The notes: generated from the letters alone by a model not told the origin. A stretch of DNA of 56,046 nt from an uncultured Clostridia bacterium (GCA_947628845.1 CANRBK010000001.1:1-56046); one strand, 5' to 3'; counted from the first letter of the stretch, positions 1 through 40,042 are shown. Program-made: numbers and translations.

Positions 1-2
1 AT

Positions 3-3000
3 ATAATTGTAAGAATAACAGAACAAACACCAAAAGTAGGCTATTTAGTAGATAATAAAACAAAAGAGATAATAATAAATAGAGTAAATGGAGAAGTAAC
101 AGTATTACGTATAGATCCTACAGACTTAGATGTAGAACAAAATGGAAATAAAGATAATCTTCAAGTTAATTTATATAGCAAAAAGAAAGAAGAACAAAAT
201 GTAGTAAAAGTAAAATTGGTTGATAGTGAAGAACAAGATGTAGCTGTTGGAGCAGGAATAGTTTACACATTAGAAGATACAGAGACAGGAACTACTTATG
301 GTCCATCAGTTTCAGATAGAAACGGAGAATTATCATTTATAATAGGAACAAAAGGAGAAGGATCACATCAATACAGATTAATATTAGATAATAATACTAT
401 ACCAACAGAATATGACAAAACAGAGAATTTAGGAGATATAACATTTAATCTAATATTTGATCAGGGTGGATATATCATAGATAAAAATACAATAGATAAT
501 AAGCTTGTAGTAAAAGAATATTGTTCAGTTGTAGATAATCAACAAACTAAAGAATATACAGCATTTATACACATTGGTTATGAAATGGAAAAAAGTAATA
601 CAATTGAATTTAAAGTAAACTTAAAAGAGTATGAAGCGAGTACACCAATTGAAGGAGCATCATACAATCTTGATATAGAGTGGGAAGTAAATGGAATAAC
701 TAGAACAAAAACAATTGTAGGAAGAAAAACAAATAATTCAGGAGAACTATCTACACGTATAGTAAAAGGTAATAATCTAAGAATTAATGTTACAGAAGTA
801 TCAGCAAGTGTTGGATATACAATGGATAGTACAACACAAGAGATAGAATTACAATTTCTAAATAATAGTAATATAAAAATAACACAATCACCTTATGATT
901 ATACTAAAGCAGATGCTAAAGGAAAATATCAAGGTGCACATGAAACTACTACAGATGTTGTTGTATATGAACATTTGAATAGACTAAGATCAACAGAAGA
1001 CACATATATAAACTTAACAGTAAATAAGCAAGACATGAATGGAGCATATGTTAGTGGAATACCATTACTTATAACATCTGATACATTACAAGATAAACAA
1101 CAACAACAATTAAAATTAGTAGCTACTACAGATGTTAATGGAACAGTTGCTATAGATTATTCTCAATATTTAAAAGATATGATAAACGAAGAAACTATTA
1201 GAGCTCCAGGAATAAAAACGGATTCTGATGAAATAGTTTACTACTTAAATGTATCTGAGGCAGAGTTAGTACCACAATCAAGTGAATATGTTGAAAAAGC
1301 AGGAACAAGAGTAACATTAAGATTAATATTCAGATATGCAGATGGTAGAGTAAGATTAACAAATGTAGAAACAATCTATGGAAATAGATTATTAGTTAAA
1401 TCACAAAATGGTGGCAAGATATTCTCAAGTTCTTCAGATACTGCTGCAGGACAACAACTTGAAAATTCTTTAGGAATATTTTTAGCAAATATAACATTGG
1501 ATTTATACACAAACTATGATGAAATAGGAAACTTGTCTTTAGATTTCAAAAAGATAAATGATATTAATGAAGAATTAGTGGGAGCTAAATATAATATAAA
1601 AGTTACAAATCCAGATGGTACAGTAGTTAGAAAAGAAATGGAAATTTCAAATGGACAATTTAGCTCAGATATAGAAATATCAGGAGTAAACGTAAATCAA
1701 GATAGTATAATAGAATTAACAGAAATAGAAGCACCAGTAGGATATGAAGTAAATGAAAATACAGAAACATTAGAAGTAACAAGTATAGCACAAGATGGAA
1801 CAATTACATTAACACACAAAGATCAATCATATAGTCCTAGCAGATTAAACTTACAACAGAAAGCATCAACTAATACAGCATCAGGAAATGTAAAAACAAA
1901 CTATGAAATAACATTTGTAGATTATCAATTAGATACATTCCAATTTGAAATAACAACAAAAGATTCAAAAGATAAAAGTGCTGTAGGAGGATATGGATTT
2001 AAAGTAGATACAAGTAAAGGTGCTACAAAAATAATAACAACATCTTCATCTGGAGTGGGCTCAGCAAAAGTCGGAGGAAGTGTAGAAAGTAACCAAATTA
2101 CATATACTATTTCAGTTAATAAAGTTGCAGAATATTATAAGCCATTAAGTGGTTTAATACATGTAATAGTAGAATTTGATCAATTTGGAAATGTTGATTT
2201 TGCTAAAACAAAAGCAGCACAGACTGATCCTGGACATGGTAAAATTTGGGACATAATAGCATTAGAAGATCAAAAAATTGGAATACAAATTTTAGTAGAT
2301 CATCAAGATCCATTAGTTGTAAAAGTAAAAACATTAGATAAAATAACAGAGGCACCAATACAAGAAGTTGATTATAAAGTACAACCATCAATGCAATTAG
2401 AAGCAATTGGAAAAACTGATATACAAGTAGGATATGTTTTAGAAAATGGTATTAAAACATACACTATTACACAAACACAAATAAAAGATTCATATCAAAT
2501 GGCAGAACCAAAAACATTTACAATAACATATCAAAATGAAGATGTAGATAGTGTGACTTTAGAAGGTCAAGCTAGTGGTACAACTGGTAAAAATGATAGT
2601 ATACAAAAAACAGGAACAAGAGAAGTAACCATAACAATATATGTTGAACCAAAAGTACCATTTGAAATAAAAGATGTATATTATTTTAATGAAACTCAAG
2701 GATTACAAGGAGCAAGTTTTGAAATAACATCATTAAGAAATAATGATACAGCTAGAGGAACAACAGATGCCCAAGGAATATTAGGGTTATATTCAGATAT
2801 ATTAGGTAAGCAAAATAATGATAAAGTTATGTACAAAGTTAGACAAACTAAAGCTGCTAGTGGATATGCAACAGTAGAGGATTTCTATGTAGAGGTTACA
2901 TATGATCAAGACAGAAAAATACAAGATGCAAAATTAGTAACTGAACATGGAGATGATGTATCAAATAATAGATTTGTAAAGGTAGGAAAGAGAACATCAA

Positions 3001-6000
3001 CATTAACAGAATATAATAAAAATGAACAAGGGGTAGTAACAATAACAATAAAACATTACCCAGAATTTCAAATATTAATTAAAGACTTAGATAGAAGAAA
3101 TGGAACAGATCCAGTAGCTGGTACTGAATATAGCGTTAAATCTACATATGAACAAGATAATAATGTAGTTGACTTTACTCAGACATCAGGAGTTGTAACT
3201 GATAGCACAGGGCTTGGAACAGCACATTTAGATAGGACAAAAGATGATACAACTGTAACATATGTTGTAAAAGAAACATCTCCAGCAACAGATTACCAAA
3301 CATTAGGAACAGATATAGAAATAGAAGTAGAATTTGATAGTAGTGGATATGTAAAAAATGTTCAAGTAAAAAATGATACTATTCTAAACAAGATAGAGCA
3401 TGCAAGTTTAAGAAGTAATATTAATAATCAACTTAATCCAGAAGATCATTTCAGAGTTGATTTGGAATTAAAAAATAATCCAATATTACAATTTAATTTA
3501 ACAGCACAAGATAGTGTGAACTCTAATACAAAAATAAAAGATATAGGATTCCAAATTGTAAGTAAACAAGATGGTGATGAAGATACAATATATTCAAATT
3601 CAGCGAATATAAACAAAGTAAATTTAACAGGAACTCCACAAACATCATATACAGATGGTAAAGGAGAGACACAATCATATTTGGATAGAACTTTGGATAA
3701 TGAAGTAATGCTTTATACAATTAAAGAAGTGCAAAAATCTCCAGGATATGAATGGAATGATACAGATATAGTAATAAAAGTCACATACGATAATAATGGA
3801 CAAATATCACAAACAGCAATAGATAAAGGAAATGGATTTATAAGTATAGATTCATATAATAAAAATGAATTCGAAATTAATATAACAATATTAAATGACG
3901 AAATAAAAGAATTTGGTATACATTTAACAACAGAAGATACATATGATACATCTAAAAGATTAAATGATATCGAAGTAGAAGCCTTTTTAACAGAAGGAAA
4001 TGCATATCAATCAGATGGTGAATATGAACTGATTGGAGACAATAGTTTAAAAACAGGTGCAGATAGAAACCAAGATGGTATACCAGACATAACATATGGA
4101 GAAGATTATGAGTCAATAGGACAATATATAGAAGGGGCAGGAGAAAGGACATTAAGATTAATAGTAAAAAATGATGCCTCAGACAAAGGTGGATATTATT
4201 TAGATAGTACAGATAATTCAAAATCTGGAGATAATATAGGATACTATTTAGGAAACCAATATTTTGAAAATGCAAAATATCAAGCACATAGTTATTGCTA
4301 TATAATAAATGTCAAATTTTCAGATGAAGGGAAAATAGAGGAAGCAAAATTAGTATCTGGAGGTCTAATAACAGGAATAGGACAATGGTCTGCAAATACA
4401 GATTATGTGCAAACAATAGGAGATACATTAAATATATTACATACGGATTATAAATTAAATATTACTATGAAATTTTTCCCAATGTTTAACTTAAATGTAA
4501 ATGCAATGGATAATTACACATATTCAAGTGAAATTAAAACAAATATAGATCAGTTACCAAATGTATTACCAGGAGCTAAATATAGAATAAGTACATCAAG
4601 ACATGATTTAGGTATTCATCCAGATGAATATGTCAAAGCAGGATATATAGGAAATTCATCTTATGGTGGTGTAATTTATGAAGGTATAGATGAAATGTTT
4701 GTACCAATAGAGAAAGGTAAATCAAGATTGTTCTTTGTATTTGAAGAAAATGAACCAACAAATTACCAAACATATACAGACAGATATATGACATTATATA
4801 GTCAAAGATTAGTTGCAATTATAAGTGTAACATTTAATGAAAAAGGAGAAATTGATCAACAGAAAACTCAGTCAGGAGAGAGAATAGATGAAAATGGTAA
4901 TATAACTAAACCTTATCTAGGTGAAGGTGGAGAGATATTATCAAGTAATAACTTACAAGAATATAATTATTTGGCAAAATTTGACAGCTGTGGAGAAGCT
5001 GGAAATGTATCTACTAAAATGAAATTTTACATTGGATATGCTTTAACCACAACTTTAAATGTAACAGCAATAGATGATATATCAGGAAATCCAATATCAA
5101 ACATAAAAATGTATCCTTTTGAAAATAAACAGACATATCCAATTAACAATAATATATGTGTAACAAACACATCTTATGAATATAATGTTTATTCATATAG
5201 ATATACCAATAGCCAAGGAAAATTTAGTATAAAATACTGGGGAGCAGCGCATAATGCCAACTCAAATCAATACATAATAGGATCTGAAAGACAAGGAAAC
5301 GATTATAATGGATATCTATTCCCAGACGATATGGCAAGTGCACAATTAGGAGGAAATGGAGATAAAAAATCTTATTATGCAAAAATAGATGTAACATATG
5401 ATGCAAATGGAAAAATTGCAAGTGTAACATCTCTAGGAAAAGACTTATGGGGAGATAACAATGCAATAGATATATCTTGGGATTCTGAAACAGGTAATGT
5501 ATACGTTAAGATGTTATATAGTAGAAAATTCCAAATGACATTAAACAAAGTAGACTTTTACGATAGTACAATAAATGGATTATTTGCAACATTTAATGTA
5601 ACATCAGATAAAGGTTTAACAACAACAATTAATGCTAAAAAAATGACACCTATGGGAAAAGTATATAAAAATCAAACAGTTAAATATACATTATCAGAAA
5701 CAGAAACTCCAGATAAATATTATCCAATAGGACAAAATATAGATTTCAATGTAACATTTGATGAAAATGGAAATATAGGAAAAAATACAATAAAATCTAA
5801 GAATGAATATTTTGAAGTAGAAATGACTACAAATGATACAGAAAAAATAAATAAAACACAACCAGATTTGACAATAAATATTAAGAACAAACCAGCATTT
5901 TGTATTGATTTAAAAATAATAGATAAATTTTATAGGAGTGAAGGAATACCAAACATTAATTTATCTGTTACAAATAGCAAAAATGATAAAGCACTAGGAA

Positions 6001-9000
6001 GCCCACAAACAGATAAAAATGGATATGCAAAAATTATTATAGGACCTGCATATATAAATGAAACAGTAACGTATGAAATAAGTCAAAATAGTCAAGCACC
6101 AGGTTATTATATGAATAACACTACTGTAAAATTAGAAGTTGAATTTAATGAAGTTGGAAAAATACAAAGATATAGCATAATAGCTGGAGATGATGTAGTA
6201 TATCAATTTAGTCCAGATGCATATTTAAATACAAGAGAAATTTCAATGCAAATTATGAATATGCCAGAAAATTTAAAAATAGGTCTATATAAATATGATA
6301 AGATAAAAGATGAACCTATGGCAGGAATAGGATTTACAATAACAAAAACAAATATAAGTTCAATGCAAACAACTAATAAAACAATAACAACTACTCAAGA
6401 TGGTACAATAGTTGAAAATATAGATACATTTACTAAAACAAATCAAGGAGAAGTTATTAAATATACAATACATGAAGATAAAACACCAGAGACATATAGA
6501 GGAATGGAAGATGTAGAATTTTTAGTAAGGTATAATGCAGATGGAAGTATAGCGTCATTTAACCAAGTACCAAATGCTAAAGGAATTTTGAATACAAAAG
6601 TTGACCTAGAAGTAGCAATAGGAACAATGAAAACTTTAAATGACCAAAAAGTACACTTTGTTGCAAAAATTCCAAATGATAATGCATTTGATATTATAAT
6701 AAAAAATGAGGATACTAACTATAGTAAATTGGGAATAGAAGATTCTATATTTGACTTAAGTATAAATGGAGTAGAATATCAACTTGAACCAACAGATGAA
6801 AATGGACAAACATCAGTTACAGATATAACTGAATCAGGAATAATAGATATTCAAGTTTCTCAAAAAACAGTAGGAGAAGGGTATAGATCAGACATAGCAA
6901 ATAATACTCATATAAAATTAGACAAAGGAATAACTACATATAGTTTAAACTTAGTTACTGGAACAGATGGATTAGTAAATGATAAACAAGCTACGACATT
7001 AAAAGCTAATGTAGAAGTTGACGAAGAATATGGAACAATAACAATAACATTTAAAAATGAAACACTAACAGAGTTAACATTAATAAAACAAGATAAAGAT
7101 AAAAAAGAAACTTTAGAAGGAATACAATTTGAAGTAAAAGCAAGACAAGTTAATGATCAAGGACAATCACTTAATAATGAAAGAACATTAACAGTTACAG
7201 GAAAAGATACTACAGATGCAAATGGAGAAATATACTTTGATTTAGGTGTTGCACCAAAACAAGAAATATGGGAATATAGCTTTGTAGAAGTATCAACACC
7301 ACCAGAATATCAAGAAAATGGCGAATTAGTAATGACAGTAAGATATGACCAATATGGTAGAATTATTAGCCAAGAATCAAATAAACAAAGTAAACTAGTT
7401 CCAACATTAAAAAATGATAATGAAAATTGCAGAAATATGTATGTAGTTATATACAATGAAAAGATTCAAGAGCCAGAAATAGGAGATGATGGACAGCCTA
7501 TAATACCACCACCAACATATACGGTAAAAGTTGTTACTGAAGATGTTGATACAGGAAAAAGAATAAGTGGTTCAAGTATATATATAAACATGACAGATGC
7601 AAATGGAGATTTAATAACAGTAGAACCAAAAACATCAGCATCAGCAAATAATGGAACTACATCTGTAACAGGAAATTTGGGAATAGATGGAAGTATGTAT
7701 ACAGATGAACAAATAGAAGAAGGAGCTCCAATTATAATAGAAAAAGGTTTAACTTATATAGATAACATAGATTATGAAGGAACTCTAAATATAGATGTAA
7801 GCCAACAAAAAACAGCAGAAGGATATGTATTTGGAGACCATACATCTGGAAATGTTCAAGTAGATGTTAAATATATACCACCAGTAGTTCAAAATGGAGA
7901 GCCAACATTAACATTCAATGTAACACAAAATGCAGGCTTTACTGTAATAGCTGATCAAACAAATAGAATAATAACAATAAAAATAACAAATAAATCACAA
8001 GTTCTATTTGATATAACTACACAAGAATATAAAACAAAGGCAGAATCAGAAACTGTATATATACAAGGAGTAAATTATATTATTACATCTGAAATTTTAT
8101 CAGCAATAAATAGTGAACCAACAGACTTAAATGAAACAACACAAATCTCAGATGAAAAAGGTAAAACTCAAGGAAATGTTGGTCGTGCATATGCAGGACA
8201 AACAATACTATATACTTTACATCAAAATACACCATTAGGATATAAGCCTATAGATGATATACAAGTAGAGGTAACATATGACTCTAGAGGATATATAAAA
8301 TACTATGAAGTATTAAGCTCAGAAGATAATTGCTATATTGATGAAGAAAATACAGAAGATAGACATTTAGCATTAATAGTTGTAAATAAAAAAGAAATAG
8401 TTCCATATAGAGTTAATGTAGAAAAACGTGCTGAAGATACAGATGAAGAACAAGATGCATACTCAAAATTATTGCAAGGAGCTAAATATAGAATAACTGT
8501 AAATCAAGCATATGGAGGGGCAGAGACTACAACATGGACTGATGTTACAGATACAGAAGGGTTAATAAAAGGTTTAGTATTTAATGGATTCGGATATATA
8601 ACAATAACAATTGAAGAAATAGAAGCACCAGATGGATACCAAATAGATATTACAAGAAAATATGAATTATATAGAGATCCAATTACAGGAGATATAAGGA
8701 CAATAAATTCTAATGTTAACCTAAGTGACAAAATAGAAACAGACGAACAAGGTAATATGATAATAAAACTTATACCAGTAGATAGACAATTAAATAACAA
8801 ATTTACGTTAATACTTAATAAATATTCAGCATTAACAGATAAGTATATAACAGAAAGTCAAGCATTATTTAATGCACAATTAATAAGAAAAGATGAAGAT
8901 GGTAATGTTATTTATCAAGATAAAATAGACAATATATACACAGATAAAAATGGTAAAGCAATAATAGACAATCAAGATATGCCAGATGAAGAAGGAACAT

Positions 9001-10466
9001 ACACATTAGTAATTACTGAAGTTGAAGCACCAGAAGGATACGAAAAATTAGTAGATTCTATAGAGATACCAGTAACATTTGGAAAAGATTCAGAAGACAA
9101 TATAATAATTACTGGAGTAAATGTAGATGGATTACAAAATGTAAAAACTACAAAAGTTAACAAACAATTGATAGGAATAAGCATTGGAAATGAAGCTGTA
9201 GGAGAAGAAATTTTAGAGGATGAATATTCTCTTGATATAACAAAAGTAGATGGAAAAACTGGTGAAGCAATAGAAAATATGGCAATATTCAAAGTTCTAT
9301 TACCAGATGAAAATAAAACTTCAGTTTATACAGAAACAATGGAAACAATATTAGGACCTGGTAAATTAGATTATTGTTATATTGAACAAGATAAAGATTA
9401 TCAAGTAAGATTAACACATATGAAATTGCCAACAGAAGAAACAACTTTAAAATATGTATTTAAAGAGATAGTACCACCTGATGGATATAGTGGCATAGAA
9501 GATGAAATGGAATTAGCAATACAATTTAAGTATGATGATACAACACAAAAAATGTATATAGCAAGTGCTAAATCAAATAGTCAATATCTAAGAGTAAATA
9601 CTATAACTCCTTGTCAAACAGATACAAGACTAAGTATAGATATCTTAAATGATGAAGGATTACCAATTGTAGTTCACTATGATGCAAATGATAATGGGGA
9701 AGGAACTCAAGTTCCAGCTGATCAAACAAAAGAAAGAGGTACAGACCTACAATTAAGTAATGATCAACCACAAAGAAAAGGATATATCTTTAGAGGTTGG
9801 GCAAAGACAGCAGATGCAACACAAGCTCAATATCAACCTGGAGGAATATTCACAGAAGATGAAAGTACAACATTATATGCAGTATGGGAAGAAGAACCAT
9901 TATATCTAAGATCAGATGTATATATAATCTCTAATGAAGACAATTATGCAGAAGATAGCAACTATTCAGAGTATGTAGATGGAGACACATATATATTTGG
10001 TATAATACCTGCTATAGGAAATAAAAGAGATGAACCAGAACTTTTAGGAACAGATAAAGCTAAATTTTTAGAAAATATACAAACAAATGCTGATCATATC
10101 TCAATAATAGATATAGATAATAGTGAATTAGAAAATGATGACGGACTAATAGTAACAGAAATGAAACTTGTATTAACTAAAGGAAATGACACAATAGAAG
10201 TAACACTAATTGTAATGGGAGATACAAATTCAGATGGTATATTAAATGGAGCTGATACATCAAACTCTGCAAACAATATAACAAAGGGAGATAAATCACA
10301 TTTTACAAAAGCACAAGAGTTAGCATTAGATGTTGATTTAGATGGAATAATAAGAGGATCAGATTTGAGTAAAATAAGAAATGTAAAAACAAATGAAATG
10401 CAAGGTGCCGAAATGCTAAGAGATGAAATTAAAAAATTAAAAGACTATCTTAATGGAAAAGTATAA
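3..10466 (+). CDS. Giant surface stalk adhesin-like protein, 5'-truncated by the window (>3,480 aa visible): tandem SpaA/Cna-B-like Ig-fold units, one Listeria-Bacteroides repeat, X-module, C-terminal dockerin
   Basis: The frame is open from base 3, with no stop before the caller's TTG at 216, to the TAA at 10464-10466. At least 15 tandem units carry the motif (I/V)TE-x-x-AP-x-GY (LTEIEAPVGYEVN, IEEIEAPDGYQID, ITEVEAPEGYEKL, and others). 9668-9894 encodes VVHYDANDNGEG...KGYIFRGWAKT...LYAVWEE, a Listeria-Bacteroides repeat. The C-terminus carries two EF-hand-like loops. Confidence 0.85.
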   Translation: MIVRITEQTPKVGYLVDNKTKEIIINRVNGEVTVLRIDPTDLDVEQNGNKDNLQVNLYSKKKEEQNVVKVKLVDSEEQDVAVGAGIVYTLEDTETGTTYGPSVSDRNGELSFIIGTKGEGSHQYRLILDNNTIPTEYDKTENLGDITFNLIFDQGGYIIDKNTIDNKLVVKEYCSVVDNQQTKEYTAFIHIGYEMEKSNTIEFKVNLKEYEASTPIEGASYNLDIEWEVNGITRTKTIVGRKTNNSGELSTRIVKGNNLRINVTEVSASVGYTMDSTTQEIELQFLNNSNIKITQSPYDYTKADAKGKYQGAHETTTDVVVYEHLNRLRSTEDTYINLTVNKQDMNGAYVSGIPLLITSDTLQDKQQQQLKLVATTDVNGTVAIDYSQYLKDMINEETIRAPGIKTDSDEIVYYLNVSEAELVPQSSEYVEKAGTRVTLRLIFRYADGRVRLTNVETIYGNRLLVKSQNGGKIFSSSSDTAAGQQLENSLGIFLANITLDLYTNYDEIGNLSLDFKKINDINEELVGAKYNIKVTNPDGTVVRKEMEISNGQFSSDIEISGVNVNQDSIIELTEIEAPVGYEVNENTETLEVTSIAQDGTITLTHKDQSYSPSRLNLQQKASTNTASGNVKTNYEITFVDYQLDTFQFEITTKDSKDKSAVGGYGFKVDTSKGATKIITTSSSGVGSAKVGGSVESNQITYTISVNKVAEYYKPLSGLIHVIVEFDQFGNVDFAKTKAAQTDPGHGKIWDIIALEDQKIGIQILVDHQDPLVVKVKTLDKITEAPIQEVDYKVQPSMQLEAIGKTDIQVGYVLENGIKTYTITQTQIKDSYQMAEPKTFTITYQNEDVDSVTLEGQASGTTGKNDSIQKTGTREVTITIYVEPKVPFEIKDVYYFNETQGLQGASFEITSLRNNDTARGTTDAQGILGLYSDILGKQNNDKVMYKVRQTKAASGYATVEDFYVEVTYDQDRKIQDAKLVTEHGDDVSNNRFVKVGKRTSTLTEYNKNEQGVVTITIKHYPEFQILIKDLDRRNGTDPVAGTEYSVKSTYEQDNNVVDFTQTSGVVTDSTGLGTAHLDRTKDDTTVTYVVKETSPATDYQTLGTDIEIEVEFDSSGYVKNVQVKNDTILNKIEHASLRSNINNQLNPEDHFRVDLELKNNPILQFNLTAQDSVNSNTKIKDIGFQIVSKQDGDEDTIYSNSANINKVNLTGTPQTSYTDGKGETQSYLDRTLDNEVMLYTIKEVQKSPGYEWNDTDIVIKVTYDNNGQISQTAIDKGNGFISIDSYNKNEFEINITILNDEIKEFGIHLTTEDTYDTSKRLNDIEVEAFLTEGNAYQSDGEYELIGDNSLKTGADRNQDGIPDITYGEDYESIGQYIEGAGERTLRLIVKNDASDKGGYYLDSTDNSKSGDNIGYYLGNQYFENAKYQAHSYCYIINVKFSDEGKIEEAKLVSGGLITGIGQWSANTDYVQTIGDTLNILHTDYKLNITMKFFPMFNLNVNAMDNYTYSSEIKTNIDQLPNVLPGAKYRISTSRHDLGIHPDEYVKAGYIGNSSYGGVIYEGIDEMFVPIEKGKSRLFFVFEENEPTNYQTYTDRYMTLYSQRLVAIISVTFNEKGEIDQQKTQSGERIDENGNITKPYLGEGGEILSSNNLQEYNYLAKFDSCGEAGNVSTKMKFYIGYALTTTLNVTAIDDISGNPISNIKMYPFENKQTYPINNNICVTNTSYEYNVYSYRYTNSQGKFSIKYWGAAHNANSNQYIIGSERQGNDYNGYLFPDDMASAQLGGNGDKKSYYAKIDVTYDANGKIASVTSLGKDLWGDNNAIDISWDSETGNVYVKMLYSRKFQMTLNKVDFYDSTINGLFATFNVTSDKGLTTTINAKKMTPMGKVYKNQTVKYTLSETETPDKYYPIGQNIDFNVTFDENGNIGKNTIKSKNEYFEVEMTTNDTEKINKTQPDLTINIKNKPAFCIDLKIIDKFYRSEGIPNINLSVTNSKNDKALGSPQTDKNGYAKIIIGPAYINETVTYEISQNSQAPGYYMNNTTVKLEVEFNEVGKIQRYSIIAGDDVVYQFSPDAYLNTREISMQIMNMPENLKIGLYKYDKIKDEPMAGIGFTITKTNISSMQTTNKTITTTQDGTIVENIDTFTKTNQGEVIKYTIHEDKTPETYRGMEDVEFLVRYNADGSIASFNQVPNAKGILNTKVDLEVAIGTMKTLNDQKVHFVAKIPNDNAFDIIIKNEDTNYSKLGIEDSIFDLSINGVEYQLEPTDENGQTSVTDITESGIIDIQVSQKTVGEGYRSDIANNTHIKLDKGITTYSLNLVTGTDGLVNDKQATTLKANVEVDEEYGTITITFKNETLTELTLIKQDKDKKETLEGIQFEVKARQVNDQGQSLNNERTLTVTGKDTTDANGEIYFDLGVAPKQEIWEYSFVEVSTPPEYQENGELVMTVRYDQYGRIISQESNKQSKLVPTLKNDNENCRNMYVVIYNEKIQEPEIGDDGQPIIPPPTYTVKVVTEDVDTGKRISGSSIYINMTDANGDLITVEPKTSASANNGTTSVTGNLGIDGSMYTDEQIEEGAPIIIEKGLTYIDNIDYEGTLNIDVSQQKTAEGYVFGDHTSGNVQVDVKYIPPVVQNGEPTLTFNVTQNAGFTVIADQTNRIITIKITNKSQVLFDITTQEYKTKAESETVYIQGVNYIITSEILSAINSEPTDLNETTQISDEKGKTQGNVGRAYAGQTILYTLHQNTPLGYKPIDDIQVEVTYDSRGYIKYYEVLSSEDNCYIDEENTEDRHLALIVVNKKEIVPYRVNVEKRAEDTDEEQDAYSKLLQGAKYRITVNQAYGGAETTTWTDVTDTEGLIKGLVFNGFGYITITIEEIEAPDGYQIDITRKYELYRDPITGDIRTINSNVNLSDKIETDEQGNMIIKLIPVDRQLNNKFTLILNKYSALTDKYITESQALFNAQLIRKDEDGNVIYQDKIDNIYTDKNGKAIIDNQDMPDEEGTYTLVITEVEAPEGYEKLVDSIEIPVTFGKDSEDNIIITGVNVDGLQNVKTTKVNKQLIGISIGNEAVGEEILEDEYSLDITKVDGKTGEAIENMAIFKVLLPDENKTSVYTETMETILGPGKLDYCYIEQDKDYQVRLTHMKLPTEETTLKYVFKEIVPPDGYSGIEDEMELAIQFKYDDTTQKMYIASAKSNSQYLRVNTITPCQTDTRLSIDILNDEGLPIVVHYDANDNGEGTQVPADQTKERGTDLQLSNDQPQRKGYIFRGWAKTADATQAQYQPGGIFTEDESTTLYAVWEEEPLYLRSDVYIISNEDNYAEDSNYSEYVDGDTYIFGIIPAIGNKRDEPELLGTDKAKFLENIQTNADHISIIDIDNSELENDDGLIVTEMKLVLTKGNDTIEVTLIVMGDTNSDGILNGADTSNSANNITKGDKSHFTKAQELALDVDLDGIIRGSDLSKIRNVKTNEMQGAEMLRDEIKKLKDYLNGKV
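10217..10385 (+). other. Dockerin module (class B) of the giant adhesin
   Basis: Two 12-residue Ca-loop signatures, DTNSDGILNGAD and DVDLDGIIRGSD (D/N at positions 1, 3, 5, G at 6, D at 12), each followed by a short helix. Confidence 0.7.
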
Positions 10467-10500
10467 AAGGTTATATTAAGAAATGAAGGAGGTGTATAAA

Positions 10501-11499
10501 ATGAATAAAAAGCGATTAATATTATTAGCAATAATTATAGTGTTAATTGTTACAATATTAGGTTTATACACAAGTAAAATACAAAACATATCAAAGGTTG
10601 CAAGTCAAACACAACAAAAGCAAGCATTAGAAGAAGATACAGAGGAACCAGCTATAGAAATCATTCAAGATACTTCAAATTTTCAAAAAGATAGAACTAT
10701 TATTCTTACAATTAAATATAAAAATCTAACTGAAAAAATATCATATGCAGATATATATATAGAATATGATAAAGAGATTTTTAAAGAAGTAGAAAATATA
10801 GATTTTAGCTATGATTTTACTGAAGATGATTTAAATTATTTCAGCTATAATAAGGAAAGAAAAGAAATAATGTTTGAATTTTATGAAGACATTGATGTTG
10901 AAACTTTATGTACCTTAAAATTAAAAGTATTAGATAGTATAACAGAACCAAAAGAGACATATTTTAATGTTATATATCCTTATATATATAATTATGAAAA
11001 TCAAGACCAAGTATTTCTTAAAGATTGTACAGAAACTATAAAATTACCTATTGGAAGCGAGGAATTATATTTATCAAGTAAACCATATAAAATAGGAGAT
11101 AATGACATAGACAAATATGAGGATGGAGATAAATATATATCAAGAGTACAAAGAGAAACAACTAAGGAAGAATTTATAAGTAACTTAGATACAAATGGAG
11201 ATATAACAATATTAAAAGCTGATGGAACACAATTAGGTGAGAATGAATTAGTTGGAACTGGAATGACACTAGTTGTAACAAAAGATGATGAAAAAATTGA
11301 ACTTAAAATAGCAGTAATGGGAGATGTAGACGGAAATGGTAAAGTTACGATATCAGATTTTGCAACAATAAATAAAGTATTAGCAAAAATCTCTACATTG
11401 AAAAATGAATATAAAATCGCAGGAGACTTAGACGAAAATGGAAATATAACAATTTCAGATTTTGCAACAATCAATAAGATATTGGCAAAACTAATATAG
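10501..11499 (+). CDS. Small cohesin-X-dockerin adaptor (scaffoldin-like) protein with N-terminal signal/anchor helix
   Basis: GGAGG at 10488-10492 lies 8 nt before the ATG at 10501 (MNKKRLILLAIIIVLIVTILG), so that start is preferred over the caller's 10483. It is followed by a cohesin-like beta-sandwich segment, the LYLSSKPYKIGDNDIDKYEDGD X-module, and a dockerin. Confidence 0.75.
   Translation: MNKKRLILLAIIIVLIVTILGLYTSKIQNISKVASQTQQKQALEEDTEEPAIEIIQDTSNFQKDRTIILTIKYKNLTEKISYADIYIEYDKEIFKEVENIDFSYDFTEDDLNYFSYNKERKEIMFEFYEDIDVETLCTLKLKVLDSITEPKETYFNVIYPYIYNYENQDQVFLKDCTETIKLPIGSEELYLSSKPYKIGDNDIDKYEDGDKYISRVQRETTKEEFISNLDTNGDITILKADGTQLGENELVGTGMTLVVTKDDEKIELKIAVMGDVDGNGKVTISDFATINKVLAKISTLKNEYKIAGDLDENGNITISDFATINKILAKLI
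10654..11055 (+). other. Cohesin-like module
   Basis: IEIIQDTSNFQKDRTIILTIKYKNL...ADIYIEYDKEIFKEVENIDF. This shows the cohesin-type alternating-strand pattern with the x-Y-D-x-x-x-F-E strand. Confidence 0.55.
11319..11496 (+). other. Dockerin module (class A)
   Basis: GDVDGNGKVTISDFATINKVLAKI...GDLDENGNITISDFATINKILAKLI is a duplicated Ca loop plus helix. Confidence 0.8.
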
Positions 11500-11527
11500 G
11501 ATATACTAGTATAATATACAAAATATT

Positions 11528-11560
11528 TGTTAGCACTTAGGGAAGTCCTAAGTGCTAGCA
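11528..11560 (+). terminator. Strong hairpin between the adaptor gene and the next gene (partial terminator/attenuator)
   Basis: In tgttagcacttagg-gaagt-cctaagtgctagca, an 11-bp perfect stem extends to about 14 bp with one G-U pair. The downstream T-tract is weak (ttgtttta). Confidence 0.45.
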
Positions 11561-11709
11561 AATAAATAAATTGTTTTATCATTTAGATATTATATTTAAA
11601 ATTTGTAAAAATAATGTAATATAAATATAATATTTAAGTGATAAAACAAATAAAAATATTTTCCGTAAGAGAAATTAGGCATATAATTTTTTTATAAGAA
11701 AAATGATAG

Positions 11710-11737
11710 TTGAAAAAAAATACTCAAATGTTAAAAT
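11710..11737 (+). promoter_or_regulatory. Candidate sigma-A promoter for the 1,365-aa gene
   Basis: TTGAAA (11710-11715), a 16-nt spacer containing an A8 run, then the TG-extended -10 tgtTAAAAT (11729-11737). Confidence 0.4.
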
Positions 11738-11772
11738 AATAACAAACTAATGATTAAAAAGGGGGAAATATT

Positions 11773-14700
11773 ATGTATAAGTTAAAAACAAAACATGATT
11801 ATATAAAATTAATAGCAATATTAGCCACATTAGTTTTAATTTGTATGTCGGTTATATTATTAATTAATAGACATAATGAAAATACTTTGAAAATAGCTGC
11901 AAATGATGGAGAAATTAAAGCTTTAGGTAGAAATGAGCTAGAAATAGAAAAATCACCATTGAATATTGAATTAAAATCAGATGCAACAGAAATTAAAGTA
12001 GGACAACCAATTGAAATAAAGATTTATGTAACAGGAGGAAACATTTCTTATTTTGATGGATATTTAGATTATAATCAGGATGAATTTGAGACATTCAGTA
12101 GAGGCAATATAAAAATAAATACAAAATTAACACAAGATGATGATACTTATGGTATGTGGGGAAAAAACTATGATACTACTAGAAAGCTGGTAAGTATATC
12201 TGAAAACTATGGTGACAATTATAAGATTCCTGATGATGGATATCTAGGAAGTATACAACTTACACCCAAAAAAAATATGGAAACTACAAAAATAACATTG
12301 ACAGATTTGTCAGTAGTTGATAAAGATGGAATAAATGTAATTATGAAAGAACTTTCTATAGATATTCCAAAACCATTAATTTCATATACAATAACATATG
12401 ATGATAATGTTGATGATGATTCAGTACAAAGTATGCCTGCAAATGGTAAAAAAAATCAAAATGAAGATTATACTATACAAGGAACACCAACAAGAAAAGG
12501 ATATACATTTAAAGGATGGAATACAGATAAAGGAGGAAATGGAACATCATATCAACCTGGAGATACATATAATGGAAATGCTAATTTAGAACTATATGCA
12601 AAATGGGAGAGAAAAACATCACAATTATTTGTAAATCCAAATGGAGGTGTATGGAATAGCAAATCTAGTACACAAAAATTTACAGAGCAAAGTGGAGAAA
12701 CAAAAGATATTCCAAACCCAACATCTGGACCTAATGGATACACAGTTAAGTTTAATGCTAATGGAGGACAAGAAGATAATTTACAAATCACACAAACAAA
12801 AAAATTTAAAAACTGGACAAAAGATGGTGATGGAACTTTAAATGGAACTTTATTTACATTTGGAGAAACAGATACAACATTAACAGCAAATTATGAAGGA
12901 GAAAGTATAACATTACCAGGCGCTACAAAAACAGGTGCAACTTTCAAAGGATGGTTTACATCAGCAGTAGGAGGAAATAAAGTAGGAGATGCTGGTACAT
13001 CATATACCCCAGATAGAGATAATATTACTCTATTTGCACAATGGGATGAAATACAATATAAATTAATAATAGATCCAGATGAAGGAACATATAATGGAGA
13101 GACTACTATATATGGAGCATATAATTCTACTATTCCAGTAAAAAAACCAACACCTCCAAAAGGTTTTACAGTAAGATTGAATAACGAAGGACAAATATCC
13201 GAAGTTGTACAAACGAAGAAATTTGTAGAATGGGTAAAAACTGGAAAAGGAAACTTAGATGATATGGTTTACACATTTGAAGATGGCGATGGAAGATTAA
13301 CAGCTAAATATATAGATAATGATGTAGAATTAGGGACTCCTTCAAGACCAGGATATAAATTTGATGGTTGGTATACATTACCATCAGGGGGAGAAAAAAT
13401 AGAGTCACCATATAAGCCAGAATCAGATATAACATTATATGCACGTTGGACACCAAATAAATATACTATAACATTTGATGCAGGTGATGATGCAACTGTA
13501 TACCCTACAACTAAAGAGGTAACATATGATCAACCTTATGGAGAATTACCAACACCAAATAGACCAGGACATACATTTAAAGGTTGGTATTATAAAGGAC
13601 AACTAGTTACAGACAAAGATACAGTAAAAATAACAGATAATGTAACACTAACAGCTTATTGGGAAGGAGAAACATATACATTAACAATAGATCCTAATGG
13701 CGGAACATACGATGGAAAAAAGGAGAAAACAATTTTAGATGGGCAATATGAACAAGAAGTAGAGATACAAGATCCAGTAGCACCAGATGGATATAAAGTA
13801 ACATTATTTAGAAATGATGGTACAGAAGATAAACAAGAAATTATGCAAGAAATAGAATTTACAGAATGGACTAAAGGAGAAAAAGGAACACTAGAAAATA
13901 ATATTTATACATTCGGAGATGGTAATGGAACTTTAACAGCACAATATGAAAAGAAATCAGTGGATTTACCACAAATTGAAAGAACAGGATATGAATTTTT
14001 AGGATGGTTTACAGATCCAACAGGAGGAGAGAAAAAAGAGGATACATTTACACCAACAAGCGATATTACATTATATGCACATTGGGAAGCAAAAAAATTC
14101 AAATTAAAATTTGAGCCAGGACCAGGTGCAGAAGAACTTGAGGAAAAAGATAAGGAAAAAGAAGTAACATATGGAGAAAAGTATGGGGATTTACCAACAC
14201 CAAAAAAAGATGGATACATATTTGAAGGTTGGTATGATGGAGAAAATAGAATAAATCCAGAGGATGATGTTGATATAACTGAAGATAAAACATTAACTGC
14301 TAAATGGGGAAAAGTAAAAGCAATGTTAAGAGTAAATCCAAATGGAGGAGAATGGGAAGGAAGCAGAGAGCCACAAGAATTTATTGAAGAATATGGAGAA
14401 GTAAAAGATATACCAGATCCAACAACAAACAGAGATGGATTTACAGTAACATTTGATAAATGTGATGGTTCAGCAAGAACTCAAGTTACGCAAACAACAA
14501 CTTTTGAACGTTGGGAATTAGATGGAGATGGAAAATTTGAAAATAAGAAATATACATTTGAAGAAGCAAATGGAACATTAACAGCAATATATAAAGGAGA
14601 CGAAGTTGAATTAGAACAACCAGAAAGACCAGGATATGACTTCGATTGTTGGTATACAGATACTGGTGTAGAAGTAAGAGAAGACTCATTTATACCTGAA

Positions 14701-15870
14701 AAAGATACTTTATTACATGCACATTGGAAGCCTAAACACTATAATGTAACATTTGAAACAGGAAGTGAGGATGCTATATTAGATGAAGATCAAAAGACAA
14801 AAGAGGTAACGCATGGAGATAAATACGGAACATTACCAGAACCAACAAGACCAGGTTATGAATTTAATGGTTGGTATGATGAAGATGGAAATAGAATTAC
14901 AGAAGATAATATAGTAGATATAACAGATGACACAACTCTTACAGCTAAATGGTTAGGAGCAACATTCACTGTATATTTCGATTATAGAGAAGGAACAGGA
15001 ATAACAGCAAAAAAAGAGGTAAGAAATGAAGGAACATATGGAGAATTACCACGAGCAACAAGAAAGGGATATACATTTGTAGGTTGGTATAATCCTGATG
15101 AAGAACTAGTAACAGAGTCAACAATAGTAGATCTTACAGACGACATTACACTACATGCAAAATATAAAGTAAATGAATATACAATTACATATGAAAATTT
15201 AATGGATAGTGATAATTCACAAAATCCAAAGAAATATACAATTGAAGATAAAGGACCATTAACATTATATAATTTACCAGACAAAGATGGTTATACATTC
15301 TTAGGTTGGTATACAACAAATGACGAAAATGGAGAGAAAGTTACAAGTATAGATACATCAAATTTGGGCAATATAACATTATATGCAAGATGGGAAAAAG
15401 AGGATGACTTATATTTAAGATCAGAAAAATATAAAGTTGGTGAAAAAGATATTGACAATTATGAACAAGGTGATATATACTTAGACAAAATAGAACCAGA
15501 AACGACAGTTGCAGAGCTAATAAGAAACTGCGAAACTAATGGAACAATGGTAGTTTTAGATTCAAGGGGAAATCCAGTACCAGAAAATAGTCTTGTCGGA
15601 ACAGGAATGACAATTAAGGTAACAAAAGATAATAAAGAAATTAGATTAACAGCAGTTGTAATGGGAGATTTAGATGGAAATGGAAAAGTAACAATATCAG
15701 ATTTTGCAACAATAAACAAAGTCCTTGCTAAATTAACAACACTTGAAGGAGCAGAATTTTTAGCTGCAGACTTAGATGACAATAAAGATATAACAATATC
15801 AGATTTTGCAACGATAAATAAAGTTCTTGCTAAACTAACTACATTAACTTATACAAAGAAAAAAAATTAA
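11773..15870 (+). CDS. Cohesin / Listeria-Bacteroides-repeat array / X-module / dockerin surface protein with N-terminal membrane anchor
   Basis: GGGGGA RBS before the ATG. The TM helix is LIAILATLVLICMSVILLI. A cohesin-like segment follows, then at least 10 copies of the G(Y/H)-x-F-x-GW(Y/F/N) repeat. The C-terminal module LYLRSEKYKVGEKDIDNYEQGD...LVGTGMT...VMGD precedes the dockerin. Confidence 0.85.
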   Translation: MYKLKTKHDYIKLIAILATLVLICMSVILLINRHNENTLKIAANDGEIKALGRNELEIEKSPLNIELKSDATEIKVGQPIEIKIYVTGGNISYFDGYLDYNQDEFETFSRGNIKINTKLTQDDDTYGMWGKNYDTTRKLVSISENYGDNYKIPDDGYLGSIQLTPKKNMETTKITLTDLSVVDKDGINVIMKELSIDIPKPLISYTITYDDNVDDDSVQSMPANGKKNQNEDYTIQGTPTRKGYTFKGWNTDKGGNGTSYQPGDTYNGNANLELYAKWERKTSQLFVNPNGGVWNSKSSTQKFTEQSGETKDIPNPTSGPNGYTVKFNANGGQEDNLQITQTKKFKNWTKDGDGTLNGTLFTFGETDTTLTANYEGESITLPGATKTGATFKGWFTSAVGGNKVGDAGTSYTPDRDNITLFAQWDEIQYKLIIDPDEGTYNGETTIYGAYNSTIPVKKPTPPKGFTVRLNNEGQISEVVQTKKFVEWVKTGKGNLDDMVYTFEDGDGRLTAKYIDNDVELGTPSRPGYKFDGWYTLPSGGEKIESPYKPESDITLYARWTPNKYTITFDAGDDATVYPTTKEVTYDQPYGELPTPNRPGHTFKGWYYKGQLVTDKDTVKITDNVTLTAYWEGETYTLTIDPNGGTYDGKKEKTILDGQYEQEVEIQDPVAPDGYKVTLFRNDGTEDKQEIMQEIEFTEWTKGEKGTLENNIYTFGDGNGTLTAQYEKKSVDLPQIERTGYEFLGWFTDPTGGEKKEDTFTPTSDITLYAHWEAKKFKLKFEPGPGAEELEEKDKEKEVTYGEKYGDLPTPKKDGYIFEGWYDGENRINPEDDVDITEDKTLTAKWGKVKAMLRVNPNGGEWEGSREPQEFIEEYGEVKDIPDPTTNRDGFTVTFDKCDGSARTQVTQTTTFERWELDGDGKFENKKYTFEEANGTLTAIYKGDEVELEQPERPGYDFDCWYTDTGVEVREDSFIPEKDTLLHAHWKPKHYNVTFETGSEDAILDEDQKTKEVTHGDKYGTLPEPTRPGYEFNGWYDEDGNRITEDNIVDITDDTTLTAKWLGATFTVYFDYREGTGITAKKEVRNEGTYGELPRATRKGYTFVGWYNPDEELVTESTIVDLTDDITLHAKYKVNEYTITYENLMDSDNSQNPKKYTIEDKGPLTLYNLPDKDGYTFLGWYTTNDENGEKVTSIDTSNLGNITLYARWEKEDDLYLRSEKYKVGEKDIDNYEQGDIYLDKIEPETTVAELIRNCETNGTMVVLDSRGNPVPENSLVGTGMTIKVTKDNKEIRLTAVVMGDLDGNGKVTISDFATINKVLAKLTTLEGAEFLAADLDDNKDITISDFATINKVLAKLTTLTYTKKKN
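11959..12370 (+). other. Cohesin-like module
   Basis: LNIELKSDATEIKVGQPIEIKIYVTGGNISYFDGYLDYNQDEFETF...ITLTDLSVVDKDG. Confidence 0.55.
12375..15405 (+). repeat. Array of Listeria-Bacteroides (Flg_new-type) repeats, alternating canonical and variant units
   Basis: Canonical units include KGYTFKGWNTD..LELYAKWE, PGYKFDGWYTL..ITLYARWT, PGHTFKGWYYK, TGYEFLGWFTD, DGYIFEGWYDG, PGYEFNGWYDE, KGYTFVGWYNP and DGYTFLGWYTT. They are interleaved with (V/I)(N/D)P(N/D)GG-x-(W/Y)-(N/D/E)-G variant units. Confidence 0.8.
15664..15846 (+). other. Dockerin module (class A)
   Basis: GDLDGNGKVTISDFATINKVLAKLTTL...ADLDDNKDITISDFATINKVLAKLTTL. Confidence 0.8.
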
Positions 15871-15929
15871 AATGTTATTAAATTTTTAAATTTTTATAAA
15901 AAAAAATAAAACAAAAGAAAGGAGAAAAA

Positions 15930-16703
15930 ATGGAAAAGAATGTAAAAACAAAGATTCTTATTGTAATAGCAGCTATAGTAATGATTATTACAGCAACTAA
16001 TACATTAGTAATGGCAGCAGAAGGAAATGATAAAGGATATTCAGTAAACATCACAGCAAGTAGTGATTCTAAATTAAAAGCGGGAGATGTAGTAACAGTA
16101 AAATTGAATTTACAAAGTGTTAATGCTGGAGGAATGGGTATTAACTCATTTGAAGCTACGATTAAATATGATACTAATGTTTTTGAAGAATTAACACAAT
16201 CAGATTTCCAAGGAAGTAATCCATGGGCAGTAATGTGGACACCACAAACAAATTATTTATCAGTATATGAACTTGGTGCAGATATAAAAGATCCACAAAC
16301 TATGGTAACAATAAATTTTAAAGTTAAATCTTCAATTGATATGGATTCTACAATAATCGGATTTGAATCTTGTAAAGCTTCAAATGGAGGAATTAATGAT
16401 GGAGGAACAGGTGATATAGATGTTAATAATATTTCTATAACAATAGACAAAGAAGCAGAGCCAGTTCCAAGTGAAACACAACCAGAAAATACTGCAGCAC
16501 CTAGCACTACTACACCAACTAATACAGCAAAAACACCTACAACAACTTCAAAAAATGTTGTAAAAGACAATACAGTTACAAAAACAGCAACTTTACCAAA
16601 AACAGGAATTGCACAATATAGTGTAGTAGCAATCGTAGTAATAGCAATAATAGCAATATTTAGTTATGTACTATATAAAAAAACATCAAAAGATGTAAAA
16701 TAG
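15930..16703 (+). CDS. Sortase-anchored cohesin protein (anchoring-scaffoldin-like)
   Basis: AAAGGAG RBS and a signal peptide ending VMAAEG. The cohesin at 16038-16451 reads YSVNITASSDSKLKAGDVVTVKLNLQSV...ATIKYDTNVFEEL. A Pro/Thr linker follows. LPKTG is at 16593-16607, then the hydrophobic helix IAQYSVVAIVVIAIIAIFSYVLY and a KKTSKDVK tail. Confidence 0.85.
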   Translation: MEKNVKTKILIVIAAIVMIITATNTLVMAAEGNDKGYSVNITASSDSKLKAGDVVTVKLNLQSVNAGGMGINSFEATIKYDTNVFEELTQSDFQGSNPWAVMWTPQTNYLSVYELGADIKDPQTMVTINFKVKSSIDMDSTIIGFESCKASNGGINDGGTGDIDVNNISITIDKEAEPVPSETQPENTAAPSTTTPTNTAKTPTTTSKNVVKDNTVTKTATLPKTGIAQYSVVAIVVIAIIAIFSYVLYKKTSKDVK

Positions 16704-16723
16704 AACATATAATTAAAAGATAG

Positions 16724-16760
16724 AGGGAAATGAGGCAATGCCTCAAATCCCTTTTTTTTC
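16724..16760 (+). terminator. Rho-independent terminator of the cohesin-dockerin operon
   Basis: gggaaatgaggca-a-tgcctcaaatccc hairpin followed by a T8 run. Confidence 0.7.
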
Positions 16761-16811
16761 GATATTATATAATTGACTTTAGGAAGAAGTATTCAAAAAA
16801 TAATGTTTGTA

Positions 16812-16840
16812 TTGTTAAAATATAATAAATAATGTATAAT
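16812..16840 (+). promoter_or_regulatory. Candidate promoter for the antiporter gene
   Basis: TTGTTA, a 17-nt spacer, then TATAAT (16835-16840). Confidence 0.35.
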
Positions 16841-16889
16841 TTAAAAAAACAAAAATAATATTAAATAACGAAAGGAAAGAAGGAAAGAA

Positions 16890-17870: not shown

Positions 17871-17873
17871 GTT

Positions 17874-17906
17874 GTTACAAAGGATGAACCTTTTAACAGC
17901 TTTTTT
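17874..17906 (+). terminator. Rho-independent terminator
   Basis: gttacaaagg-atgaa-ccttttaac hairpin (one mismatch) followed by a T6 run. Confidence 0.5.
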
Positions 17907-18019
17907 ATATTGTAGGAAAGTTCTCCAAATTTCCTATAATATAAATCGACTAGACATTCAAATTTGAAAAAATATGTATTTTTATGTATAATAATATATG
18001 AAAAATCTAAAAAGAGGTA

Positions 18020-19879: not shown

Positions 19880-19894
19880 TTAAAAATATAGACA

Positions 19895-19923
19895 AAAGAT
19901 AGCAATTAATTTGCTATCTTTTA
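19895..19923 (+). terminator. Hairpin terminator
   Basis: aaagatagcaa-ttaat-ttgctatcttt is an 11-bp perfect stem with a short T tail. Confidence 0.5.
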
Positions 19924-19958
19924 ATATATAAATGCAAAGCTAATAAATGTTTAAAATG

Positions 19959-19987
19959 TTGACTTTTGTCGTAAAATCGATTAAAAT
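19959..19987 (+). promoter_or_regulatory. Candidate sigma-A promoter of the giant Zmp-like gene
   Basis: TTGACT (19959-19964), a 17-nt spacer, then TAAAAT (19982-19987). Confidence 0.45.
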
Positions 19988-20048
19988 AATTATGTATTTT
20001 TACGATTATAATTATATATTGCAAAAATTTTAAAAGGTGGATGAAAAT

Positions 20049-34071: not shown

Positions 34072-34164
34072 AACTTTGCCTCCATTCAATACAGAGAACA
34101 TTAAAAGTAAAAGCACAATATTTAATGTTCTCTATTATAGGGCAAATTTCATTGGAAAGCAATG

Positions 34165-40021: not shown

Positions 40022-40042
40022 GAATAAATACCTATAAAACAA

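Follow-up and report, generated by a model that had tools for sequence, protein, structure and literature searches.

A candidate cohesin-dockerin display system for adhesin-like proteins in uncultured gut Clostridia

The DNA considered here is a 56-kb window (56,046 nucleotides; GCA_947628845.1, CANRBK010000001.1:1-56046; G+C content ~27%) from the genome of one uncultured Clostridia bacterium, and its subject is a group of four neighbouring genes, designated A, B, C and D, that encode cohesin and dockerin modules. A first-pass annotation, made by a model from the sequence alone, had placed at 9668-16703 an operon-encoded, sortase-based cohesin-dockerin assembly system with adhesin rather than enzyme payloads. 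The modules of A to D do lie there, but the system is not confined to that interval, as a cohesin and a dockerin are also found in a fifth gene, E (20049-32540), which begins 3.3 kb downstream of D.

Gene coordinates were taken from a listing of open reading frames (ORFs) and are matched by public gene calls for identical contigs; the genes A to E and all of their features lie on the plus strand. Gene A (1..10466) has its 5' end outside the window, with a frame open from base 3 over 3,487 codons, and is followed by B (10501-11499; 332 aa, from MNKK), a small putative adaptor, by C (11773-15870; 1365 aa), and by D (15930-16703; 257 aa), the putative wall-anchored base. The intergenic gaps of 34 nt (A-B), 273 nt (B-C) and 59 nt (C-D) are exactly those given in the first-pass annotation. 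A terminator-like hairpin lies just 3' of D (16731..16745, plus strand); it is a consensus match only, from a scan that found no site inside A-D and whose match count was not above that of shuffled sequences. Promoter-like matches in the 273-nt gap between B and C are likewise no commoner than in shuffled sequence.

Cohesins, X-dockerin cassettes and the sorting signal

On sequence and fold comparison, the N-terminal modules of B, C and D are cohesins, as had been proposed, with a different line of evidence for each. In D, a signal peptide (15930-16019) precedes a cohesin (16038-16454) that scores 39.1 bits against Pfam Cohesin (PF00963; gathering cut-off 24.1 bits), a threshold also passed by the N-terminus of E (27.3-31.2 bits). 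The B cohesin (10642-11055; Pfam 23.0 bits), which follows a signal peptide or anchor (10501-10605), was recognized by fold and family. An AlphaFold2 model of B built from 41 homologues has block values of the predicted local distance difference test (pLDDT) of 86-98 across most of residues 48-272, and cohesins account for 38 of the 41 Foldseek matches of this model to the PDB at E <= 0.001, the best structural matches being the Clostridium perfringens cohesins 2vo8 and 2jh2 (TM 0.73-0.75). Furthermore, the B-family profile matches 3ul4_A at 1e-4, and a precomputed PF00963 match is present in many of 150 B homologues. The divergent C module (11953-12375), preceded by a hydrophobic N-terminus (11800-11868), was identified by profile-profile comparison, in which a profile of six orthologues aligned with the D cohesin family (hhalign 98.2%, E 3e-14) and with the B family (97.4%), and had cohesins as its best PDB matches (5lxv_A at 1.4e-3, 1aoh_A). 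Each N-terminal module was thereby found to score, fold or align as a cohesin, one of the two points on which the first-pass annotation had let its reading stand or fall. Sequence identity among these three cohesins is low, at ~20-28%.

At their C-termini, A, B and C had been said to share a cassette of ~190 aa. The sequence motifs LYL.S..Y, Y..GD.Y, TN, T.M, TK and VMGD are indeed invariant in an alignment of all three, but the length of ~190 aa applies to A only, which carries an insertion, the cassettes of B and C measuring ~146-158 aa. Identity is 59% between the cassettes of B and C and 33-36% between that of A and the other two. The cassette consists of an X module of ~85 aa and a dockerin formed by the last ~60 residues, and over these two parts together the A-family and B-family profiles align with an hhalign probability of 99.8% (E 1.8e-27). 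Cassette alignment places the X module at 11059-11319 in B and 15403-15663 in C, with the dockerins at 11320-11496 and 15664-15852; in A, where alignments and hhalign reveal a ~20-aa insertion in the X module relative to B and C, the corresponding positions are 9894..10217 and 10218..10391.

That the cassettes end in dockerins was confirmed for B (41.3 bits) and C (23.8 bits) by Pfam Dockerin_1 (PF00404; gathering cut-off 22.9 bits), which the dockerin of E passes as well (24.3-28.3 bits), and for A by a six-orthologue profile with hits to dockerins of known structure (4fl4_A, E 4.4e-6). For the B family, the profile search recovers the Xyn10B dockerin structure 1ohz_B (E 1e-11). Both calcium-binding loops are visible in the alignment of every dockerin, with their residues conserved, and in the divergent dockerin of A the two loop motifs are GDTNSDGILNGAD and DVDLDGIIRGSD. 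In B and C, each half of the dockerin contains TISDFATINK(V/I)LAK, so that the domain is internally symmetric; the A dockerin is asymmetric. The X module stands directly before the dockerin, as in known X-dockerin dyads, and its only matches are weak ones, to ubiquitin-like domains and Ig-like folds. A candidate identity as a diverged repeat of the Flg_new family was rejected (hhalign probability 0.1%).

The dockerins of B and C are more alike within this genome (76% identity) than either is to its own orthologues (46-59%), and they share lineage signatures in all four helices: TISDFATINK here, TPTDLS in L012 and SELN in L007, where L006-L016 and L022 are labels of related loci or metagenome-assembled genomes (MAGs). 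Recent gene conversion was considered as the source of this likeness and rejected. Because the two dockerin-coding sequences are only 76% identical in DNA, with scattered synonymous differences and no long identical tract, the resemblance is not the product of one recent conversion tract; older conversion is possible.

The payloads joined to these cassettes in A and C are, from their domain content, adhesin-like. Gene A encodes at least nine SpaA/prealbumin-fold domains (Pfam SpaA, E 1.7e-31 over 9 stretches), then a Listeria-Bacteroides repeat (Flg_new, PF09479; 9666..9893; 37.3 bits) directly before the X module and the C-terminal dockerin, and a full-length orthologue of 4135 aa (L016) combines VWA_2, SpaA and Flg_new. 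In C, ten Flg_new repeats (12379-15402; E 1.2e-105) separate the cohesin from the cassette. In build, the payloads are thus as first described, a giant stalk adhesin and a Listeria-Bacteroides-repeat protein, and the two proteins said to carry both a cohesin and a dockerin are B and C, each with one of either.

D carries no cassette. Its cohesin is followed by a Pro/Thr-rich linker (16455-16592), LPKTG (16593-16607), and a membrane helix with a basic tail (16608-16700), in the very order originally described; the hydrophobic segment is IAQYSVVAIVVIAIIAIFSYVLY and the tail KKTSKDVK. The LPXTG anchor model TIGR01167 scores 19.8 bits on D against a cut-off of 15.9, and D orthologues retain LPKTG with one exception, LPKAG in a mouse MAG (L012 16240-17007). 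D has, as far as can be judged from these features, the architecture of a sortase substrate.

Conservation, payload census and the M26 peptidase gene

A survey of related genomes, of the kind proposed in the first-pass annotation, showed that the A-D operon is retained in at least seven uncultured Clostridia species of the mammalian gut. Relatives of B occur in ten species-level genomes, all of them uncultured gut Clostridia (Clostridium sp. 26_22, UMGS1516, CAG:575, and Hadza, mouse and rabbit MAGs), and the index of the contig collection lists one B orthologue in 202 blocks. The order giant X-dockerin protein, cohesin-X-dockerin, cohesin-Flg_new-X-dockerin and cohesin-LPXTG recurs in L006/L016, L007, L008, L012 and L014; B-C-D without A upstream is found in L010, a Hadza MAG, and A-B only in L011 and L013. 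Among the named genomes, Clostridium sp. 26_22 and UMGS1516 have the order A-B-C-D, as do two further gut MAGs and the mouse MAG with LPKAG. Overall, A and B are adjacent in 9 of the 10 species and C and D in 7. The rabbit MAG L015 has a larger version of the locus (6566-21010), with six cohesin/X-dockerin genes in a row, among them genes for a scaffoldin that holds two cohesins (8347-9954) and for a protein (7816-8337) that has a cohesin as its only such module, an N-terminal membrane helix and no LPXTG. Absence from the scan of these loci with B-derived hidden Markov models is not evidence of absence, because that scan missed known modules: in E the cohesin and the dockerin, in full-length A the X module. 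A possible co-loss of the A dockerin and the B cohesin across species was not used, the pattern being inconsistent (L013 keeps its B cohesin despite a degenerate A dockerin).

The range of proteins that carry the X module was assessed by an exhaustive search of representative sequences, a word-indexed search with the X profile having returned 19 short proteins only. The module is present in 461 protein clusters, in proteins of ~300 to >5,000 aa, nearly always 60-150 aa from the C-terminus. Among 20 sampled mid-sized X-module proteins, Flg_new lies directly upstream of the module in 18 and a dockerin is present in 19; in the same 20 proteins, SpaA and cohesin are found in 2 each, the papain-family Peptidase_C1 in 1 and NPCBM in 1. 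No glycoside hydrolase (GH) was found in the 20 sampled X-module proteins, nor any carbohydrate-binding module (CBM) besides the one NPCBM. Stand-alone X-dockerin proteins of ~172 aa also exist (P0139, P0141-P0143; P numbers are labels of homologous proteins).

Within the window, scans of ORFs of at least 150 aa, other than the two short ones at 48839-49537 and 49587-50207, gave no GH, CBM or S-layer homology (SLH) family, and to that extent the claim that none occurs in the window stands. The same is true of the statement that the locus is not a cellulosome: the window holds no CAZyme (carbohydrate-active enzyme), and the scaffoldins are single-cohesin proteins. The marks of an amylosome or mucinolysome are missing from the window for the same reason as those of a cellulosome, there being no dockerin-bearing CAZyme and one cohesin per scaffoldin.

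Enzymatic content enters the locus with gene E (4164 aa). A signal peptide and a cohesin (20118-20516) are followed by two membrane helices (20598-20669 and 20706-20774) and a dockerin (20775-20948), then by ~2,500 aa of repeats that lie between the dockerin and the peptidase regions Peptidase_M26_N (28653-29378; 72.2 bits) and M26_C (30342-32306; 104.7 bits). With its N- and C-terminal M26 regions and an HExxH zinc site (HETLH, 31488-31502), E has the defining features of peptidase family M26. In L022 (GCA_947631665.1), the unit of signal peptide, cohesin, two membrane helices and dockerin is a separate 314-aa gene (4709-5653) directly upstream of an M26 peptidase gene (5729-15653; 4547 aa) with a signal peptide of its own. 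Because the unit is fused to the peptidase in the window and adjacent to it in L022, a fusion/fission pair, the link between the two is conserved in one form or the other. Since E has both kinds of module as well as an M26 peptidase, it is probable that the system takes in an enzyme; on this evidence the M26 protease very probably belongs to it. The description of the payloads as adhesins rather than enzymes was therefore right in so far as no carbohydrate-active enzyme was found, but it does not accommodate the M26 peptidase of E or the papain-family peptidase of one X-dockerin protein. A cohesin related to that of E is also found combined with an FtsX-like permease domain, in P0160.

Several other genes surround the locus. 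Between D and a gene for an AMP-binding, acyl-CoA-ligase-like protein (18020-19879, plus strand), which lies 3' of D in nearly every operon-bearing species (L006-L016), is a gene for a Na+/Ca2+ exchanger (16890-17870, plus strand; Na_Ca_ex, E 1.9e-71). The exchanger gene is found at that place in this genome only, the orthologous loci being without it, and it is possible that it is tied to the calcium-dependent dockerins, or that its position is coincidence. Downstream of E, the region 32812-42170 encodes a tyrosine integrase (minus strand), an ECF-type sigma factor, a Spo0A-like response regulator (minus strand), an HTH_36 protein (minus strand), and three secreted-looking proteins without a Pfam family; GC skew switches sign at 32-34 kb and again at 40-42 kb, and the region may be an integrated element. 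Further on, 42804-47241 (plus strand) contains an AAA_5 ATPase gene, two small ORFs, and a DUF2201 gene (putative metallopeptidase plus VWA-like domain), the AAA_5 and DUF2201 genes being a MoxR/VWA-type pair unrelated to the cohesin-dockerin locus.

A proposed display system and the alternatives to it

The reading that we favour, with a probability of roughly 0.6, is that A-D form a cell-surface display system made from cohesin-dockerin parts in low-G+C uncultured mammalian-gut Clostridia, a figure that includes the wiring set out here. D would be secreted, and a sortase encoded elsewhere would cut LPKTG between T and G and join D to peptidoglycan, with the Pro/Thr linker holding the single cohesin outside the wall. 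A, B and C would also be secreted, and the X-dockerin unit of each would plug non-covalently, with bound calcium, into a cohesin. In the wiring proposed, which is the more tentative part, the dockerins of B and C would bind the D cohesin, the divergent dockerin of A would bind the cohesin of the adaptor B, and the cohesin of C would be a further socket, with A, the neighbouring membrane-anchored peptidase E (M26) or dockerin proteins from other loci as its possible partners. The outcome would be a set of wall-tethered, exchangeable adhesin-like proteins and at least one protease, not carbohydrate-degrading enzymes. The fact that, in a given genome, the dockerin of B resembles that of C more closely than either resembles its orthologues suggests one common partner, most simply D; the frequent adjacency of A and B suggests, in turn, that A docks on the B adaptor.

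A number of observations weigh against such a display system, or at least against parts of it. The wiring is read from gene adjacency and dockerin similarity only, the single-chain AlphaFold2 model of B has its dockerin undocked from its own cohesin, and in both models that include a dockerin (full-length B and the X-dockerin unit) this part has a pLDDT of ~40. As single sequences, the cohesin of B falls just under the PF00963 cut-off and the dockerin of A, at 17.4 bits, falls below that of Dockerin_1; the N-terminal module of C has no Pfam match and is visible as a cohesin by profile methods only; and two of the loci, L013 and L014, keep the X module of A but have a degenerate dockerin there. 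The X module itself has no Pfam family, whether searched as single sequences or with 11 members, and no relative among solved structures by PDB profile search, and a model of the X-dockerin unit of moderate quality (pLDDT 65) gave no Foldseek match better than E 0.18. Finally, the scans of the window's ORFs gave no sortase family, and what stands of the original term "sortase-based" is the LPKTG sorting signal on D, which is its sole basis.

The same modules could serve other ends. A-D might supply no more than the scaffold and anchor for an enzyme complex of amylosome or mucinolysome type, in which the cohesins mainly recruit dockerin-bearing hydrolases encoded elsewhere, peptidases or glycosidases that act on host glycoproteins, and the repeat proteins are spacers or substrate-binding arms. 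Such a complex would make sense of E, which combines cohesin, dockerin and M26 peptidase 3.3 kb downstream, and of the single X-dockerin proteins with Peptidase_C1 and with NPCBM; the anchors ScaE and Sca2 bind peptidase dockerins too, and mucin-degrading cohesin-dockerin complexes have been described in gut Limousia. Only 56 kb of the genome is in view, and dockerin-bearing enzymes may lie elsewhere, a further point that counts against the display system. We nonetheless regard the enzyme complex as unlikely, given that neither the window nor, the lone NPCBM aside, the 20 sampled X-dockerin proteins yielded a GH, a CBM or another CAZyme, that the scaffoldins here mostly have one cohesin whereas enzyme-integrating scaffoldins hold many, and that the largest conserved payload is built as an adhesin stalk (VWA plus SpaA).

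Other alternatives retain the surface location or dispense with cohesin-dockerin binding altogether. Since B and C each have one cohesin and one dockerin, either or both might bind dockerins of their own kind head-to-tail and produce, on D, a long non-covalent, calcium-dependent fibre in place of a sortase-built pilus. Self-recognition of this type is documented for Amy4 of Ruminococcus bromii and ScaH of Ruminococcus flavefaciens, and dual-binding dockerins are typically symmetric, as those of B and C are. However, the full-length model of B left the dockerin undocked, at low confidence, and for that reason the polymer finds no support here; moreover, nearly identical dockerins on B and C, set against dissimilar cohesins in B, C and D, fit one shared partner better than three, and no sequence feature separates chain growth from one-step adaptors such as ScaC. 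A fibre is on balance improbable. It is more improbable still, to the point that we give it hardly any weight, that the cohesin-like sandwiches and EF-hand pairs are structural relics that stabilise, space, or bind other ligands without any cohesin-dockerin complex. The jelly-roll fold is common to cohesins and carbohydrate-binding modules, and several modules are at or below Pfam cut-offs, as would suit relics, but cohesin and dockerin genes co-occur in a fixed order across species, calcium-loop residues are conserved, the dockerin helices of B and C co-vary within each genome, and the unit of signal peptide, cohesin, two membrane helices and dockerin is fused or adjacent to an M26 peptidase.

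To return to the display system that we favour, a more far-reaching version of it is that widespread gut Clostridia have replaced the covalent LPXTG anchoring of their largest adhesin by a plug and socket, so that a VWA-tipped SpaA stalk of >4,000 aa, an Flg_new protein, and an enzyme of the IgA-protease family would be held on one sortase-anchored cohesin via a hitherto undescribed X-dockerin cassette and one or two adaptor steps. This version is offered tentatively, and we lean towards doubting it. If true, it would amount to a third route of adhesin display in Gram-positive bacteria, beside direct sortase anchoring and pili, and display by this route would be exchangeable, calcium-dependent, and possibly force-resistant.

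Cohesin-dockerin systems have mostly been studied as organisers of plant-fibre enzymes. In the present operon, which is conserved in several species of the human, mouse and rabbit gut, these parts carry adhesin-like proteins, along with a protease of the IgA1-protease family. If the complexes form, gut commensals would attach to the host or to particles by anchors that are non-covalent and exchangeable, the X-dockerin cassette, which in most cases follows a Listeria-Bacteroides repeat, would represent a compact targeting tag of a new kind, and the locus would offer a natural set of orthogonal cohesin-dockerin pairs for the engineering of surface display.

Relation to known systems

A full-text search of the literature found no paper on the A-D operon or on the cohesin-dockerin genes of these MAGs. 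The claim that the layout is uncharacterised accordingly holds for this operon, but not for the general plan, for which there are precedents in the sca cluster of R. flavefaciens and in Sca2 and Amy4 of R. bromii. Cohesin and dockerin are both encoded in 4,333 of 289,232 UHGG genomes, or 1.5% of human gut genomes (PMC12997984), and ruminococcal scaffoldins with adhesion-type domains (Ig-like, leucine-rich repeat (LRR), MucBP, Flg) were noted in 2026.

The closest known match is the R. flavefaciens cluster scaC-scaA-scaB-cttA-scaE, whose last gene, scaE, encodes a cohesin with LPXTG (PMC5301203, PMC4266597). Partners of the ScaE cohesin are the X-dockerins carried by ScaB, by the adhesin CttA and by a peptidase, and the bond between CttA and ScaE ranks with the most force-resistant bonds described (PMC5301203, PMC4266597). 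Both clusters end in a single-cohesin LPXTG protein, with X-dockerin genes upstream that include a non-enzyme adhesin (CttA in R. flavefaciens), and the small cohesin-plus-dockerin adaptor ScaC can be compared with B. In contrast to the sca cluster, the window contains no CBM, GH or multi-cohesin enzyme-integrating scaffoldin, the payloads are VWA/SpaA/Flg_new repeat proteins, the X module is without a sequence or fold match to solved X modules, and the hosts are low-G+C uncultured "Clostridium sp." MAGs rather than Ruminococcus. The amylosome of R. bromii is likewise a human-gut, non-cellulolytic cohesin-dockerin system with a sortase-signal cohesin anchor, Sca2, which binds amylase dockerins as well as peptidase- and LRR-bearing ones, and it includes Amy4, a protein with a cohesin and a dockerin that binds itself (PMC4611034). 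Unlike the proteins described here, its main payloads are GH13 amylases with starch-binding modules, and it has neither an X-dockerin cassette of this type nor a giant stalk adhesin.

Cohesin-dockerin complexes directed at the host have also been reported. The mucinolysomes of Limousia, reported in 2025-2026, resemble the present system in being gut-Firmicutes complexes whose target is the host and not plant fibre, but they belong to a different genus and are composed of multi-cohesin scaffoldins and dockerin-bearing mucin glycosidases, neither of which is seen here. The cohesin-dockerin pairs of C. perfringens (GH84C, GH33 and others) are similarly non-cellulosomal and host-directed, and the model of the B cohesin is structurally closest to them; there, however, the modules are situated inside secreted glycosidases and toxins and link enzymes, with no sortase-anchored base or adhesin operon.

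For E, the appropriate comparison is with the streptococcal M26 proteases (IgA1 protease, ZmpB, ZmpC), which have the same M26_N and M26_C regions, the HExxH motif, and a very large size. The pneumococcal M26 enzymes have two hydrophobic segments near the N-terminus, as does E. The streptococcal enzymes carry an LPXTG-type motif in this N-terminal region, in the place of which E has a cohesin before the helices and a dockerin after them.

Gene A, finally, is made of the same blocks as the Gram-positive adhesins known as MSCRAMMs (microbial surface components recognizing adhesive matrix molecules) and sortase-built pili, that is, VWA and a long stalk of SpaA/Cna-B type, and its presumed job is theirs, the holding of an adhesive domain far from the wall. 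In contrast to those proteins, A ends in an X-dockerin, and because this takes the place of LPXTG, its attachment would be non-covalent and exchangeable. Nor does the locus have the make-up of a sortase-assembled pilus, as A, B and C end in dockerins rather than LPXTG and the window is without a sortase or a pilin motif. A specialist aware of ScaE/CttA and Sca2 would not be greatly surprised by the A-D system, which is nonetheless conserved and prevalent. It differs from these precedents in its lineage, in the undescribed X module, in the triad of Flg_new, X module and dockerin, in the VWA/SpaA stalk that ends in a dockerin, in the lack of CAZymes and multi-cohesin scaffoldins within the window, and in the M26 protease flanked by a cohesin and a dockerin.

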